DNA of 64,000 bases from an uncultured Chloroflexia bacterium (GTDB lineage Bacteria; Chloroflexota; Limnocylindria; Limnocylindrales; CSP1-4). Both the position numbers and the translations under genes were made by a program. The notes under the pieces were generated by a model. That model saw nothing but the letters and a program-made list of their open reading frames with translations, ran no database searches and was not told where the DNA came from. Location: assembly GCA_963813335.1 (NCBI GenBank), contig CAWEYL010000001.1, positions 1,056,001 to 1,120,000 of the forward strand, written 5' to 3'. This document shows, one piece after another, positions 12,283 through 17,452 of the stretch; position 1 is the stretch's first letter, and every line of letters begins with the position of its first letter.

Positions 12283-13419
12283 ATGGACGGGTCCCGCTTG
12301 TCCTCGGCCCTGTTCTGCGAGCAGTGCGGCCTTGACCGGGACTCGCTTGGCGACGAGTCGATCTCCCCGTTCCGCGAGTGTCCTGCGTGCGCGCGCGCCG
12401 TCTGTCCGAACTGCTGGAACCTCGTCCGCGCCGCCTGCCTCCGTTGCGCGCCATTCAGCCTCGCGACCCGGGCCCCGAGCACGGTCGTCCCGCTCAGCGC
12501 GGTGGCACCCGCCGCAACGGCGGATCCCGCGTCGGCCGCGACACGGACCTCGAAGCTGCCCCGCCGAGGCAAGGGCTCGAAGGCGGCCGCCGCCGGGGCC
12601 GTGACGGCCAAGGCCGCAGGAACGGTCGGCGCCGCTCCGGCCGCCACCAGGACACCGGTCCCGATCTCGCCGCCGGTCGAGCGCGATGTCTCCTGGCCGG
12701 TCCGTGCCGGCAGCACGGCCGTCGACACGCCGTGGCCCGCGATGGGCAGCGCGCCGCAGCCGATCAAGGCGCCCGTCCGCCCGAACCGGGTGACGGCGCG
12801 CCGGCGCGGCCGATCGGGCGGGTTCACCGCGGCCGCCGGGATGGTCGTCGTGCTCGTGGCCATGTTCGGCGTGGCCGGGCTGGCGCTGGCGGCGTTCGGG
12901 CGGCTGCCGGCCGCGGGACCCGGCGGGCATCCGCCTGCGACCCAGACCCCGACCCAGCCGGACGGTTCCGCGCCCGGATCCGCGCCGATCGTGGCCCTCC
13001 CCACAGGCGGGACGACGACCGACCCGGTGTCCACAGGGGTGCCGGACACGACCGGCACGAGCGGCCCGGGCGGCAACACCGGCGGCCCGGGGACGCCGGG
13101 GACCCATGGCGCGCCGGGAGCGACCGTTCGGCCGGACGGCTCCACGCCGAAGCCGTTCACGACACCGGGAGCGACCGCCACGGCGACCGCGACTGCGACG
13201 CCCACGGCGGAGCCGACGCCGACCCCCACACCGGAGCCCACCGAGGCGCCGACACCGACGCCGACACCACCACCGGACCCGACGCCGGAGCCGACCGAGG
13301 TGCCGACACCGACACCGACACCACCCCCGGACCCGGATCCGACGCCCACCAACGCCCCCCAGCCCGAACACGACACCAGCTGGCAGGGTCCGCGGCTACC
13401 ATCGAGGGATGGCCGCTGA
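12283..13419 (+). CDS. Membrane protein with N-terminal 8-Cys zinc finger and C-terminal Pro/Thr-rich tail
   Basis: CEQC..CPAC..CPNC..CLRC, one TM segment (MVVVLVAMFGVAGLALAAF) and PT repeats; GGGGAG RBS upstream. Confidence 0.7.
   Translation: MDGSRLSSALFCEQCGLDRDSLGDESISPFRECPACARAVCPNCWNLVRAACLRCAPFSLATRAPSTVVPLSAVAPAATADPASAATRTSKLPRRGKGSKAAAAGAVTAKAAGTVGAAPAATRTPVPISPPVERDVSWPVRAGSTAVDTPWPAMGSAPQPIKAPVRPNRVTARRRGRSGGFTAAAGMVVVLVAMFGVAGLALAAFGRLPAAGPGGHPPATQTPTQPDGSAPGSAPIVALPTGGTTTDPVSTGVPDTTGTSGPGGNTGGPGTPGTHGAPGATVRPDGSTPKPFTTPGATATATATATPTAEPTPTPTPEPTEAPTPTPTPPPDPTPEPTEVPTPTPTPPPDPDPTPTNAPQPEHDTSWQGPRLPSRDGR
13228..13335 (+). repeat. Coding tandem duplication, 2 x 18 aa (TPEPTE[AV]PTPTPTPPPDP)
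   Basis: Seen directly in the translation; boundaries approximate. Confidence 0.75.
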
Positions 13420-14029
13420 GGACCCGGACCTCGAGATCGTCCCGCTGACCACGGAACGGTTCGCGGATCTCGCCGTCCTGTTCGAGGAAGGTGGCGATCC
13501 CCGCTGGTGCTGGTGCACCTACTTCCGCGTCCGCGGCCGCGACTGGACGAACTCGACCGCGGCCACGAACCGCGCGGAGCTCGAGTCGCGGGCCGCCGAC
13601 GATCCGCCTGCGGGCCTGGTCGCCTACGCGGGCGACCGCGCGGTCGGCTGGGTCAGTCTCGGGCCACGCGAGAGCTACGAGCGGATCGCCGCGTCGCGTG
13701 TCCTCGCGCCCGTCGATGCGCGCCCCGCCTGGTCCATCGTCTGCTTCGTCGTGTCGCGGACGGCCCGCGGTCGCGGCGTCGCCCGGGCCCTCCTCGACGC
13801 GGCCATCGAGCACGCGACGGCGCACGGCGCGACGCTCCTGGAGGCCTACCCGCTCGACACGGAGGGCGGTCGAGTCCCGTCCGCGCACGTCTATCGCGGC
13901 ACGCTCAGGATGTTCCGGGCCGCGGGATTCACCGAGGTGGCGCGACGCCGTGCGAACGCGACGGCGCCGGAACGGCCCATCGTCCGGCTCGAGATCCGAG
14001 CCGGCCCTACGTCATCCGTCCCGTCCTGA
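13409..14029 (+). CDS. GNAT family N-acetyltransferase
   Basis: CWCTYFR, VGWVSLGPR, WSIVCFVV, RGRGVARALL, LEAYP. TACCAT lies 6 nt upstream of the ATG. Confidence 0.88.
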   Translation: MAAEDPDLEIVPLTTERFADLAVLFEEGGDPRWCWCTYFRVRGRDWTNSTAATNRAELESRAADDPPAGLVAYAGDRAVGWVSLGPRESYERIAASRVLAPVDARPAWSIVCFVVSRTARGRGVARALLDAAIEHATAHGATLLEAYPLDTEGGRVPSAHVYRGTLRMFRAAGFTEVARRRANATAPERPIVRLEIRAGPTSSVPS

Positions 14030-14048
14030 CGCACGTCGTCCGCCCGGG

Positions 14049-14078
14049 TTGACACGGCTCCGTCACGCCGCCTAGACT
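14049..14078 (+). promoter_or_regulatory. Sigma70 promoter of the ABC-rsgA operon
   Basis: TTGACA-18 nt-TAGACT. Confidence 0.75.
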
Positions 14079-14135
14079 GCCGGCTGGCGTGCATGTCGCC
14101 CGCCCTCGTCTAGCTCTCTTGGAGGGTCCCTCCAT

Positions 14136-14219
14136 ATGACGATGCTCCTCAGCTTCCGGCACACGCCGGCGCCCATCGGCGTCGACGCGAGCGGGAGATC
14201 TGTGCCCATCTCGAGCTAG
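14136..14219 (+). CDS. Putative leader peptide (MTMLLSFRHTPAPIGVDASGRSVPISS, 27 aa)
   Basis: GGAGG RBS at 14121. The ORF lies between the promoter and an intrinsic terminator, and its 3' codons are complementary to the terminator 5' arm. Confidence 0.65.
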   Translation: MTMLLSFRHTPAPIGVDASGRSVPISS

Positions 14220-14255
14220 CCGCAGGCGGCAGGACCGCCTTCCGGACAGACCACG

Positions 14256-14288
14256 AGCCGTGGGCCAGATCGGGCCCCCGGCTTTTTT
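14256..14288 (+). terminator. Intrinsic terminator (attenuator) in the 5' leader
   Basis: AGCCG-TGGGCC-loop-GGCCC-CCGGC followed by TTTTTT, upstream of the first structural gene. Confidence 0.85.
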
Positions 14289-14419
14289 GATGCCCTTCCC
14301 CGCCCTCCAGGCGGACCAGCTGGACACCACGAGCCGCGAGGCCCACCCCGACCAGGTCGGAGGCGAGCCCGCGGCTCGTCCCGTTCCAGCCCTCCACCCG
14401 TCCAGCCCTGGAGTCCACC

Positions 14420-15301
14420 GTGACCGCCACCGTCATCGAACAACCGAAGATCGACGCCTCGGCGATCCGTCCAGCCGTCTGGCCGGTTGCCGCCGGCGTC
14501 CCGGCCCTGCTCATCGAGCGCGTCAGCAAGCGCTTCGTGGTCGGCCGGGACAAGAAGGCCGTCGATGCCATCACCGACGTGTCGCTGCGCCTCGAGCGCG
14601 GCGACATCCACGGGATCCTCGGCGCCAACGGCTCGGGGAAGTCCACGCTCATCCGCCTCATCTCGGGCCTGCTGACCCTGGACGAGGGCCGGGTCGAGGT
14701 CTTCGGCCACGACATCGAACGCGACGAGCTCGCGGTCAAGCGCCTGATCAACCGGGTCAGCGTCGACGCCGCCTTCTTCAAGAAGCTCAGCCCGATGGAG
14801 AACCTGGTCTTCGCGGCGCGGCTCTACGGCCTCGACGGGACGACCGCCAAGCGCGATGCGATCGCGATCCTGGAACGGCTGGGCATCGGCGAGAAACGCC
14901 TCAACCGCCCCATCGAGCAGATGAGCCGGGGGATGCAGCAGAAGGTCGCCATCGCGCGAGCCCTGCTGACCAGCCCGTCCCTGCTGCTCCTGGACGAACC
15001 GACCACCGGCCTGGACCCGCGCTCGAAGCTCGAGGTCCAGACCTTCATCGAGGAGATCAACACCACCGCCGACGCGACCATCGTCCTGACGACGCATGAC
15101 CTGGCCGAGGCCGAGCGCCTCTGCGGCCGGATCACCGTCCTCAACGACGGCAAGGTCGTGGCGGAGGACACCCCCGAGGGCCTCAAGACCCTGATCGGGG
15201 ACCGCATGGGTCGAGCGCCGACCCTCGAAGACGTGTTCATGACCTACACCGGCCGTTCCCTCGACGATGACGTCGAGGAGGACGACGCCGAGATCGACTG
15301 A
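14420..15301 (+). CDS. ABC exporter ATP-binding protein (DrrA/NodI-like)
   Basis: GANGSGKST, MSRGMQQK, LLLLDEPTTGLDP, TTHDL. Confidence 0.93.
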   Translation: MTATVIEQPKIDASAIRPAVWPVAAGVPALLIERVSKRFVVGRDKKAVDAITDVSLRLERGDIHGILGANGSGKSTLIRLISGLLTLDEGRVEVFGHDIERDELAVKRLINRVSVDAAFFKKLSPMENLVFAARLYGLDGTTAKRDAIAILERLGIGEKRLNRPIEQMSRGMQQKVAIARALLTSPSLLLLDEPTTGLDPRSKLEVQTFIEEINTTADATIVLTTHDLAEAERLCGRITVLNDGKVVAEDTPEGLKTLIGDRMGRAPTLEDVFMTYTGRSLDDDVEEDDAEID

Positions 15302-15316
15302 AAGGAGGTGATAACC

Positions 15317-15511
15317 ATGTTGTACGCCATCGAAGTCCACGCCCAGCTCGCGCACGAGCGGATCGAACGCGAGATCGCGTTCGCCGCCGAACGCCGCCGC
15401 TTCGGGCTGGACCAGCCCTCGTCCATCCGACGTGCCATCGGGCACCGATTCATCGCGATCGGTGCACGGCTCGCGTCGGAGCCCTCGCTGGAGTCGGTCC
15501 GGTCCCGCTGA
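15317..15511 (+). CDS. Small hypothetical protein (64 aa)
   Basis: Very strong RBS AAGGAGGTGAT before ATG 15317; lies between the ATPase and permease genes. Confidence 0.65.
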   Translation: MLYAIEVHAQLAHERIEREIAFAAERRRFGLDQPSSIRRAIGHRFIAIGARLASEPSLESVRSR

Positions 15512-15545
15512 GGACCGGACCGACTCCCCACCTGGAGATCCTCCG

Positions 15546-16349
15546 ATGACCGTCGTCGCCCATGAGCTGAAGGCCTCCTATGCCTTCATGGAGCGCAACT
15601 TCTTCCTCACTCGCCGCTACTGGGGCTGGGAACTCGCGTTCCTGGTCTACTCGGTCGCGGGCGCGCTCTCGATCTCGCTCATCGGTGTCGACCAGGGCAG
15701 CCCCGAGCTGCTGCTGACCCTGATGGTCGGGGCGATCTTCTGGAACTACCTGTCGGTCGTCTTCAGCTGGATCGCCGAGACCGTCTCGGTCGAGCGTTGG
15801 GAGGGCACCCTCGAGTACACCTTCATGGCCCCGGTCCGGCGCTGGTCGCAGCTGGTCGGCCAGGTCTCGTACGCGATGGTGTACGGCCTGATCCACACGG
15901 CGGTGATCTTCATCGTGCTCGTGCTGTTCTTCCCGCAGCTGGACCTGAGCCACGCGAACCCGGGGACCGCCCTGACGTTCATGCTGCTCGGCTCGTTCAG
16001 CTTCGTCGGGATCGGCATGATCGCGGCCATCCTGCCGCTGCTGTACGTCGAGCGCGGCGCGCAGATGACGTTCGTGCTGCAGTCCTGCATCCTGCTCGTC
16101 AGCGGCGTCTACTACTCGGTCGAGGTCCTGCCCGAGTGGATGCAGGTGCTCTCGCGCCTGTCGCCCGCGACCTACGTCCTCGAGGGCGTGCGGGCCGGGC
16201 TCGTGCACGGCGCCCCGGTCTCCGAGCTGCTCGACGACGTCTGGCCGCTCGTCGTGATGGGCTTCGTGTTCATCCCGTTCGGGCTGTGGGCGTTCGGCCG
16301 CGCGGAGCGCTACGCCAAGCGCACCGGCAAGCTGAAGCGGGTCGGCTGA
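15546..16349 (+). CDS. ABC-2 type permease
   Basis: ERWEGTLEYTFMAP, SGVYYSVEVLPEWMQ..SPATY; about 6 TM segments. Confidence 0.9.
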   Translation: MTVVAHELKASYAFMERNFFLTRRYWGWELAFLVYSVAGALSISLIGVDQGSPELLLTLMVGAIFWNYLSVVFSWIAETVSVERWEGTLEYTFMAPVRRWSQLVGQVSYAMVYGLIHTAVIFIVLVLFFPQLDLSHANPGTALTFMLLGSFSFVGIGMIAAILPLLYVERGAQMTFVLQSCILLVSGVYYSVEVLPEWMQVLSRLSPATYVLEGVRAGLVHGAPVSELLDDVWPLVVMGFVFIPFGLWAFGRAERYAKRTGKLKRVG

Positions 16350-17452
16350 TGCTCGGCTGGGATCCCGCCTGGGAGACGCACCTGGCGCCCTTCTCGGGTG
16401 CCGGGCGCGTCGCCGCGCGCGTCATCGCGGTCCACAAGGAGACCTCGATCGTGCGCGGGTCGGACGGGGTGGACCGGCCGGCCACGGTGTCTGGCCGGTT
16501 CCGCTTCGAGGCGCTCGCCACGTCCGACTACCCGGCGGTCGGCGACTGGGTGGCCCTCGAGGCGTCCACGGCCGCGCCGGGCACGGAGGACCGCGTGATC
16601 ATCGCCGCGATCCTGCCGCGCCGGTCGGCGTTCACCCGCAGCGCCGCGGACGCGAGCCGGCGGACGGCCGGCCACCTCGCCGACGAGCAGGTCATCGCCG
16701 CCAACGTCGACGTCGCCTTCATCGTGGCCGGGCTCGACCACGACTTCAACCTGCGCCGCCTGGAGCGCTACCTCGCGGTCGCCTGGTCGAGCAACGTGAC
16801 CCCGGTGGTCGTCCTCAACAAGGCGGACATCGCCGACGACCTCGACGGCCGCCTCGTGGCGGTCGGCGCGGTCGCGCCCGGCGTGCCGGTGGTCGTCCTC
16901 TCCGCGCTGACGGGCGAGCACCTCGGCGACCTGCGGCCGCACCTGGTGACGGGCCGGACCGCGGTCGTGCTCGGCTCGTCGGGCGTCGGCAAGTCCACGC
17001 TCGTGAACGCGCTGCTCGGCGAGGAGCGCCAGTCGACCGCCGCCGTCCGCGAGGACGACTCGCGCGGCCGGCACACGACCACCCATCGCGAGCTGTTCGA
17101 GCTGCCCGGCGGCGCCTTGCTGATCGACACGCCCGGAATCCGCTCGCTCGAGGTGGCGGGCGCCGACGAGGGCGTCGAGACCGCCTTCGACGACATCCTC
17201 GAGCTGGCTGCCACGTGCCGCTTCTCGGATTGCCGCCACGAGGGCGAGCCCGGCTGCGCGATCCAGGCCGCCGTCACCGACGGCACGCTCAGCGCCGACC
17301 GGCTCGCGAGCCACCGCAAGCTCGAGCGCGAGCTGGCTCGCGCGGTTCGCGAGACCGATCCCCGGGCACGAGCCGAGTTCCGGCGCAAGTGGCAGATCAT
17401 CCACAAGTCGGTCGACCAGCACATGAAGACCAAGTACGGAGGACGACCATGA
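16349..17452 (+). CDS. rsgA: Ribosome small subunit-dependent GTPase A
   Basis: PAVGDWV, IAANVD, LNKAD, GSSGVGKSTLVN, GRHTTT, DTPG, CRFSDCRHEGEPGC zinc finger; TGATG coupling to the permease. Confidence 0.93.
   Translation: MLGWDPAWETHLAPFSGAGRVAARVIAVHKETSIVRGSDGVDRPATVSGRFRFEALATSDYPAVGDWVALEASTAAPGTEDRVIIAAILPRRSAFTRSAADASRRTAGHLADEQVIAANVDVAFIVAGLDHDFNLRRLERYLAVAWSSNVTPVVVLNKADIADDLDGRLVAVGAVAPGVPVVVLSALTGEHLGDLRPHLVTGRTAVVLGSSGVGKSTLVNALLGEERQSTAAVREDDSRGRHTTTHRELFELPGGALLIDTPGIRSLEVAGADEGVETAFDDILELAATCRFSDCRHEGEPGCAIQAAVTDGTLSADRLASHRKLERELARAVRETDPRARAEFRRKWQIIHKSVDQHMKTKYGGRP

Follow-up and report, generated by a model that had tools for sequence, protein, structure and literature searches.

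A putative ribosome-dependent transcription attenuator preceding an ABC-2 exporter operon in uncultured soil Chloroflexota

In the trp leader of Escherichia coli, the position of the ribosome on a leader ORF selects either an antiterminator or a terminator, and a ribosome at the stop codon masks the antiterminator strand. Ribosome-mediated transcriptional attenuation is also described, in the available text of PMC4191407, for bmrB, which leads the bmrBCD operon in Bacillus subtilis and for which induction by antibiotics has been shown. The uORF leaders of vmlR in B. subtilis (PMC9226507) and of whiB7 in mycobacteria (PMC10274678) are presented in the accessible parts of these papers as acting by transcription attenuation and reporting translation stress. 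A further point of comparison is provided by the arrest peptides SecM (RAG/P) and ApdA and ApdP (RAP/P), for which the portion of PMC10951233 at hand describes a critical arginine and a Pro-tRNA that occupies the A site.

The leader described here lies in the intergenic gap between a GNAT gene (ending at 14029) and an ABC ATPase gene (14420–15301) within the window, the whole stretch of 64,000 nucleotides that was analysed. Its features are listed in Table 1. The elements of the attenuator that an earlier note on this DNA had reported at 14049–14290 are confirmed: the TTGACA-18-TAGACT promoter at 14049 is recovered by direct reading and by a scan, and the GGAGG ribosome-binding site, the uORF (14136–14219), the hairpin AGGCGG/CCGCCT at 14224–14240 and the terminator, with a stem from 14255 and a U6 tract, are all present where they had been placed. 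The promoter matches the consensus at ten of 12 positions and is the sole promoter-like site within 13500–15000, for which shuffled sequences predict 0.0. Transcription is predicted to start near 14085. In 89 of 95 relatives the motif TTGAC-N18–20-TA.... occupies this position, and the −10 element is exactly TAGACT in 46.

Table 1. Coordinates of the leader and of the genes that follow it (positions in the window)
Feature	Position	Strand	Description
Sigma-70-type promoter	14049-14078	+	TTGACA 14049-14054, 18-nt spacer, TAGACT 14073-14078
Region 0	14086-14104	+	5' leader segment; pairs with 14186-14208 in the window's MFE fold
Shine-Dalgarno GGAGG(G)	14121-14133	+	GGAGG 14121-14125, 10 nt before start; CCCTCC downstream could sequester the SD
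uORF (leader peptide)	14136-14219	+	27 codons, then TAG; peptide MTMLLSFRHTPAPIGVDASGRSVPISS
Hairpin H2 (within uORF)	14169-14182	+	GCGCC / GGCG(T), over A-P-I-G codons
A box	14197-14213	+	Antiterminator 5' strand; uORF codons 21-26
Hairpin B	14220-14245	+	GGCGG 14225-14229 / CCGCC 14235-14239; lower stem CCG/CGG; begins one base past the stop
Antiterminator 3' strand	14254-14271	+	T1 5' arm and loop
Intrinsic terminator T1	14254-14288	+	GAGCCG-T-GGGCC, loop AGATCG, GGCCC-C-CGGC, U6 14283-14288
Structured 5' UTR past T1	14289-14419	+	Small hairpin 14300-14304/14310-14314, long hairpin T2, RBS GGAG 14410-14413
T2	14330-14378	+	5' arm 14330-14342, 3' arm 14367-14378, then pyrimidine-rich run
ABC transporter ATP-binding protein, DrrA-like	14420-15301	+	Pfam ABC_tran 1.4e-32
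Small 64-aa ORF	15317-15511	+	SD AAGGAGG; between ATPase and permease
ABC-2 type permease	15546-16349	+	Pfam ABC2_membrane 3.3e-17
RsgA GTPase	16349-17452	+	TIGR00157, 158 bits versus cut-off of 100

Across 20 species of the genus the segment 14190–14296 is nearly invariant, in contrast to variable flanks and a variable N-terminus of the ABC protein. The fold energy of 14085–14292 is ordinary (z = −1.47; 20 of 200 shuffles fold equally well), so that the argument is built on conservation and covariation and not on stability. The longer segment 14085–14425 folds with z = −3.86, a stability reached by none of 100 shuffles. For the comparison, 99 of 129 non-duplicate loci were searched with a covariance model, near-identical same-genus rows and five near-duplicate or short loci having been left out, and 95 matched at E ≤ 1e-6. 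RNAalifold on a MAFFT alignment (A1) recovered only fragments and no compensatory pairs because of register shifts, so that a model-fitted alignment (A3) was used instead. A3 was fitted to the terminator state, and the antiterminator played no part in making it.

The uORF looks like a real, translated reading frame. GGAGG stands 7–12 nt ahead of the start in all 19 readable loci of the genus, and a Shine–Dalgarno-preceded start with a frame that ends 1–25 nt past an invariant GCCC is found in 90 of the 95 aligned leaders. The stop lies exactly 10 nt past GCCC in 81 of these 90, and the stop codons interchange (TAG in 69, TGA in 19 and TAA in two). The remaining five leaders have TGA at the same place and failed the Shine–Dalgarno pattern only; a stop codon just past the conserved box is kept in 95 of 95. 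The encoded peptides are 17–52 residues long (median 27), and their N-terminal two thirds vary in both sequence and length. No run of a single amino acid, whose absence in the window had been pointed out before, occurs in 20 peptides of the genus or in the distant ones, and runs or clusters of regulatory amino-acid codons of the trp, his or leu type are absent from both sets.

Not every element that had been proposed around the start codon is shared. A mini-hairpin GGAGGG/CCCTCC over the Shine–Dalgarno sequence (14121–14126 with 14128–14133) is present in the window, but GGAG followed by CTCC is seen in just 22 of 80 relatives. Tiny upstream ORFs at 14093–14113 and 14089–14139, put forward as a possible further layer of control, exist in the window but are kept in five of 89 relatives.

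The terminator and two hairpins are well supported by the alignment. Two overlapping terminator-like sites were found at T1 in a scan for which shuffles of the region predict 0.2. Across the 95 leaders T1 is paired in 98.9% of cells, with four of ten pairs changed on both sides. Hairpin B is paired in 100% of cells and four of its five pairs are changed on both sides; its lower stem appears by eye as a CTG/CAG variant in leaders L023, L046 and L049. In H2 all five pairs are changed on both sides (for example GCACC/GGTGC), with 82.5% of cells paired. For the terminator, H2 and B together these values amount to 95.1% paired cells and 13 of 20 pairs changed on both sides.

The 3' end of the uORF can pair with the 5' arm and loop of T1 through 14197–14202/14266–14271, 14204–14208/14261–14265 and 14210–14213/14254–14257, a duplex of 15 pairs interrupted by one bulge (T14203) and by an internal loop. 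The proposal of the earlier note that this duplex is an antiterminator mutually exclusive with T1 is backed by compensatory changes and by stronger duplexes between cognate strands. On A3, 88.1% of cells pair, and nine of the 15 pairs (43 cells) are changed on both sides. The covariation score is 0.128 compared with 0.083 for shuffles, none of 500 of which reaches it, and it does not exceed 0.041 when the partner is slid. Whole segments are seen by eye to be exchanged on both strands, from GATCTG/CAGATC to CAGTG/CACTG, GACTG/CAGTC, GATCCG/CGGATC, GTTCC/GGAAC or GCATTG/CAATGC, and a second such exchange leads from GCCCA/TGGGC to GCCCT/AGGGC. In an alignment-free calculation, A-box/T1-arm duplexes have a mean energy of −22.4 kcal/mol for cognate and −19.1 kcal/mol for non-cognate strands, with 0 of 5000 permutations as low, and this advantage is unchanged for 87 distinct combinations. 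The relatives are kin, so that the significance is overstated by both the shuffle and the permutation controls. Alignment of orthologous leaders had been suggested as a check of the attenuator, and this is what it returns: a uORF kept in 90 of 95 leaders and an antiterminator that covaries at nine of 15 pairs.

A second alternative pairing that had been suggested, between GCCCATCGGC (14171–14180) and the terminator arm, did not hold up: it has two double-changed pairs, a number equalled by 352 of 500 shuffles. The GCCCATCGGC segment forms its own covarying hairpin, H2, instead. We also considered region 0, which in the window can form a duplex of −24.4 kcal/mol with the A box, as an anti-antiterminator. 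This role is unsupported by co-evolution. Cognate pairs average −18.65 kcal/mol versus −19.06 kcal/mol for permuted ones, 4679 of 5000 permutations being as low, and they are just 1.6 kcal/mol better than pairs with a shuffled region 0.

The A box serves two purposes at once, as coding sequence and as RNA strand. Five leaders read it in another frame (...GDPCPS*) yet retain its nucleotides, which points to selection at the RNA level, and the third positions of its codons are no less fixed than the first and second. The leader peptides nevertheless share a C-terminal consensus G-R-S-(V/A)-P-x-S-x-stop. An arginine stands at −3 from the invariant proline in 87 of 95 leaders and is encoded by AGA (68), CGA (10), AGG (eight) or CGC (one). 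Serine occupies position −2 in 73 of 95 leaders; at −1 there is valine in 67 and alanine in 20. The serine at −2 is coded by TCT/TCC or AGT and that at +2 by TCG or AGC. Because the arginine and the serines are kept through differing codons, the peptide is perhaps not a passive spacer. Codons 21 and 22 of the uORF, AGA TCT, are the rarest arginine and serine codons of the operon; in the four genes that follow (995 codons), none of 84 arginine codons is AGA or AGG and one of 60 serine codons is TCT. Comparison of the leaders indicates that both peptide-level and RNA-level constraint leave traces in the 3' end of the uORF, and a programmed ribosome pause on the A box is possible.

Taken together, the promoter, Shine–Dalgarno sequence, uORF, hairpin, terminator and antiterminator support an assignment as a ribosome-coupled transcription attenuator: a short ORF has its own ribosome-binding site, a terminator precedes the structural genes and the 5' strand of the antiterminator would lie inside the footprint of the ribosome. 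We consider it probable that the leader is a ribosome-dependent leader-peptide transcription attenuator that controls an operon of ABC ATPase, small protein, ABC-2 permease, RsgA and probably a two-domain GNAT. RNA polymerase would initiate near 14085, and a ribosome would load on GGAGG/ATG and translate the 27-codon uORF. The A box (14197–14213) is complementary to the terminator 5' arm and loop (14254–14271) and would be covered whenever the P site of the ribosome is anywhere from about codon 20 to the stop. A ribosome on the last eight or so codons or on the stop when the T1 arm emerges would mask the A box; the terminator would fold and end transcription at its U tract (OFF). With no leading ribosome, or with one that comes late or stalls short of about codon 19, the A box would be free to pair with the T1 arm before the 3' arm is made, and polymerase would read through into the operon (ON).

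Equilibrium folding predicts the terminator for the full-length leader under any ribosome mask, with a probability of at least 0.79 in 22 of 23 picked leaders. As the terminator always wins, such folding with masks is uninformative on switching, and the switch must be kinetic. When the RNA is cut before the T1 3' arm, the antiterminator core has a median probability of 0.99, with values above 0.5 in 84% of 89 leaders; its loss under a ribosome mask in these cut transcripts is true by construction. Naked leader RNA is predicted to antiterminate, a tentative default given that region 0, the only candidate anti-antiterminator, shows no co-evolution. With rather less confidence than the assignment itself, we favour the polarity in which a timely ribosome turns the operon off and a missing, late or early-stalled one turns it on. 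As to the signal, we suggest only tentatively, and at somewhat less than even chances, that translation in general has become slow or scarce, as caused for instance by ribosome-targeting antibiotics or starvation, and that it is not one amino acid. The idea that the leader senses translation stress or antibiotics is inferred from the layout of its parts and by analogy with bmrB, vmlR and whiB7.

Soil metatranscriptomes contain related sequence in small shares (24 runs, at most 0.19 of the sampled words). Contigs from four runs cover 14192–14284, two contigs of one run ending at 14284, and other contigs bridge the terminator (14256–14717, 14255–14679 and 14191–14456). Such contigs are interrupted at points where the relatives differ and do not inform on ends or levels, so they are not evidence of termination or of expression level.

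Of the described systems, bmrB is closest in layout. According to the available text of PMC4191407, both have a small translated ORF, alternative stem-loops and an intrinsic terminator directly 5' of ABC exporter genes, as well as rare codons in the leader, and in bmrB read-through depends on translation of the leader. The ON/OFF logic proposed here matches that shown for bmrB–bmrCD in the same source. There is no sequence relation, and the bmrB terminator is described as lying inside the coding region (PMC4191407) compared with 35 nt past the stop here. A DrrAB-like ABC-2 pair makes up the transporter in the present operon, and the host belongs to the uncultured Chloroflexota. With the trp leader our proposal shares the logic by which a ribosome at the uORF stop hides the antiterminator strand. 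Unlike the trp leader, there is no regulatory codon run, the downstream genes are not biosynthetic and no 1:2-type anti-antiterminator is supported. The likeness to the leaders of vmlR, an ABCF factor, and of whiB7, a transcription factor, is one of architecture, the regulated genes and the phyla being different. As the host is a member of the Chloroflexota (Limnocylindria) and not an actinobacterium, whiB7/wblC, which the earlier note had invoked, serves only as an analogy. The leader peptides resemble RAPP/SecM-type arrest peptides, as described in the part of PMC10951233 available, in having an arginine three residues before a proline near the C-terminus of a regulatory uORF. They differ from those described there in reading RS(V/A)P rather than RAP(P/G) or RAG/P, with three more codons before the stop. 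They also precede genes for an ABC ATPase, an ABC-2 permease and RsgA and not secA, secDF or yidC.

This last resemblance bears on a more specific variant of the attenuator, in which the G-R-S-(V/A)-P-x-S-x-stop sequence or the rare AGA-TCT pair would pause the ribosome on the A box and so enforce termination, the level being set by a specific cue, namely a small molecule in the exit tunnel, the supply of a rare arginine tRNA or release-factor activity. The persistence of the arginine in 87 of 95 leaders despite four codons would be expected from it, as would the use of both serine codon families at −2 and at +2 and the rarity of these codons in the downstream genes (0 of 84 for AGA/AGG and one of 60 for TCT). 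The R-x-x-P spacing equals that of RAG/P in SecM and RAP/P in ApdA and ApdP in the accessible text of PMC10951233, and rare codons are reported to tune bmrB read-through in that of PMC4191407. However, the motif is not RAPP, RAPG or RAGP, five leaders have the box in another frame and eight are without the arginine, and the N-terminal half of the peptide is variable. The RNA pairing needs the same nucleotides and could account for the rare codons and for most of the conservation. We regard this variant as unlikely.

Partial conservation at the level of the peptide would also fit a functional small peptide, acting as partner, substrate or regulator of the exporter, for which a leaky terminator would only set the ratio of peptide to transporter transcript. 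Exported peptides are commonly encoded in such a way, by a short gene with a terminator behind it, in front of genes for an ABC exporter. A peptide with such a role is hard to reconcile with N-terminal two thirds that vary in sequence and length (17–52 residues), with the five leaders in which the frame is shifted and the nucleotides are kept, with third codon positions in the A box as fixed as the rest and with amino-acid changes that follow compensatory changes in the terminator loop; we consider it very unlikely. Slightly less probable still is a translation-independent RNA switch, in which a ligand or protein would choose between antiterminator and terminator and the ORF would be incidental. 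Several covarying helices and a core of about 100 nt that hardly varies would suit such a switch, and in the window a helix formed by 14086–14104 and 14186–14208 encloses the 5' domain in the manner of a P1 stem. Yet this helix is without support from co-evolution, the loops and junctions vary, and no aptamer-like conserved unpaired core was seen in them. The Shine–Dalgarno sequence, the start and a stop that interchanges between TAG, TGA and TAA are all kept, and no Rfam family scores above threshold (Xoo2, 26 versus 45 bits, through the hairpins only).

The leader, for which we prefer the reading as a ribosome-dependent attenuator, is widespread in its lineage. It occurs in 22 of 24 other genomes of the genus. 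By BLAST with 14120–14300, matches are present in 241 of 301 genomes of its family (CSP1-4), a tally that includes four unpublished genomes, and in 43 of 49 genera. A covariance model (R1) built from 63 leaders matches 102 of 108 family genomes and none of 42 genomes of a sister family with 1.1-Mb genomes. In a phylum-wide draw R1 matches 22 of 151 genomes, among them all ten genomes drawn from a second family within the class and two of three from another family, with single weak hits in five more Chloroflexota families. A pattern scan of species-representative genomes gave at least 120 matches, and nearly all of those listed are Chloroflexota or Candidatus Limnocylindria MAGs. An Rfam scan of 13000–16000 with E up to 10 brought no family to its gathering threshold; the top match, Xoo2, scores 26 bits against a gathering score of 45 and covers only hairpin B and the terminator. 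A full-text literature search gave no description of such a leader in Chloroflexi or of an ABC–rsgA leader. The leader is, by these searches, an undescribed family of a well-known type of control in uncultured soil Chloroflexota. Three genomes carry second copies (L246, L247 and L288) with shorter uORFs of 25 residues that end in ARSAPLSA* or ARAVPTSG*.

The genes that follow the leader were compared at 48 loci, of which one was too short. At 44 of the remaining 47 an orthologue of the ABC ATPase (57–83% identity) begins 84–281 nt past the terminator and is followed by an ABC-2 permease; the three loci without the ABC pair are borderline model matches. In two-copy genomes each leader stands ahead of its own ABC ATPase/permease pair (L246 and L247). 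RsgA is encoded no more than 4.5 kb downstream at 22 of the 36 loci that have the ABC pair and enough sequence. An rsgA-centred reading was rejected on these counts, since linkage is partial and genomes without it have just one copy of the leader; the leader is thus tied to the ABC genes and not to rsgA. From its gene context, RsgA is best described as a frequent passenger and not as a fixed partner of the leader.

RsgA is a GTPase of 30S maturation, and the operon copy is the sole rsgA detected in the genome, which is 81% complete. This allows a more daring version of the attenuator, in which the leader would gauge the supply of working ribosomes and feed back on ribosome assembly through rsgA. 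Too few initiation-competent 30S subunits reaching the uORF in time would leave the antiterminator to form and switch on the operon together with the only rsgA of the genome. The R-x-x-P/rare-codon module would normally park an arriving ribosome on the antiterminator strand and hold the operon off. We think this version distinctly improbable. In the window the rsgA ATG overlaps the permease stop (TGATG, 16347–16351), which implies that translation of a ribosome-assembly GTPase is coupled to that of a membrane permease, and a two-domain GNAT follows RsgA.

The ATPase scores 226 bits against TIGR01188, under the cut-off of 312. In a PDB sequence search it is closest to ABCA-type nucleotide-binding domains and the GNAT to an uncharacterised two-domain GNAT, the permease gave no match, and none of these PDB neighbours indicates a substrate for the transporter. 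The conserved 64-residue ORF between ATPase and permease has tblastn matches in the same position at 21 of 48 loci and no Pfam family; its product possibly serves the transporter as a small accessory subunit. Its stop codon is spanned, just 5' of the permease ribosome-binding site, by a perfect inverted repeat of 14 bp, AGTCGGTCCGGTCC...GGACCGGACCGACT at 15492–15525.

Limnocylindria-type Chloroflexota are abundant soil bacteria and, to our knowledge, have no cultured members. If the attenuator model holds, this would be the first regulatory RNA mechanism worked out for them, and it would flag a conserved ABC-2 exporter operon, often with rsgA and a GNAT gene, as responding to impaired translation. 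The near-invariant core of roughly 100 nt is a handy marker, and the leader would offer a compact system for testing a kinetic switch between terminator and antiterminator in which the two strands also serve as coding sequence. As a mechanism it is textbook material; what is gained is a new family and a clue to the function of the operon and not a new principle.

The transcript remains structured past T1. A strict regular expression recovers the T2 motif from 44 of 95 relatives, among which the second family of the class is represented. The 5' arm of T2 nearly repeats that of T1, so that in read-through RNA the freed T1 3' arm could pair there, and T2 may act as a second, fail-safe terminator or else as a relay. 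In the window the arms of T2, GAGCCGCG...CGCGGCTC (14330–14389), are followed by a pyrimidine-rich tail without a clean U tract. Closer to T1, the sequence GATGCC, made up of the six bases that directly follow the U tract (14289–14296), is almost invariant among relatives, and in several genera it is seen by eye to form a small hairpin with a downstream GGCATC directly after the terminator.
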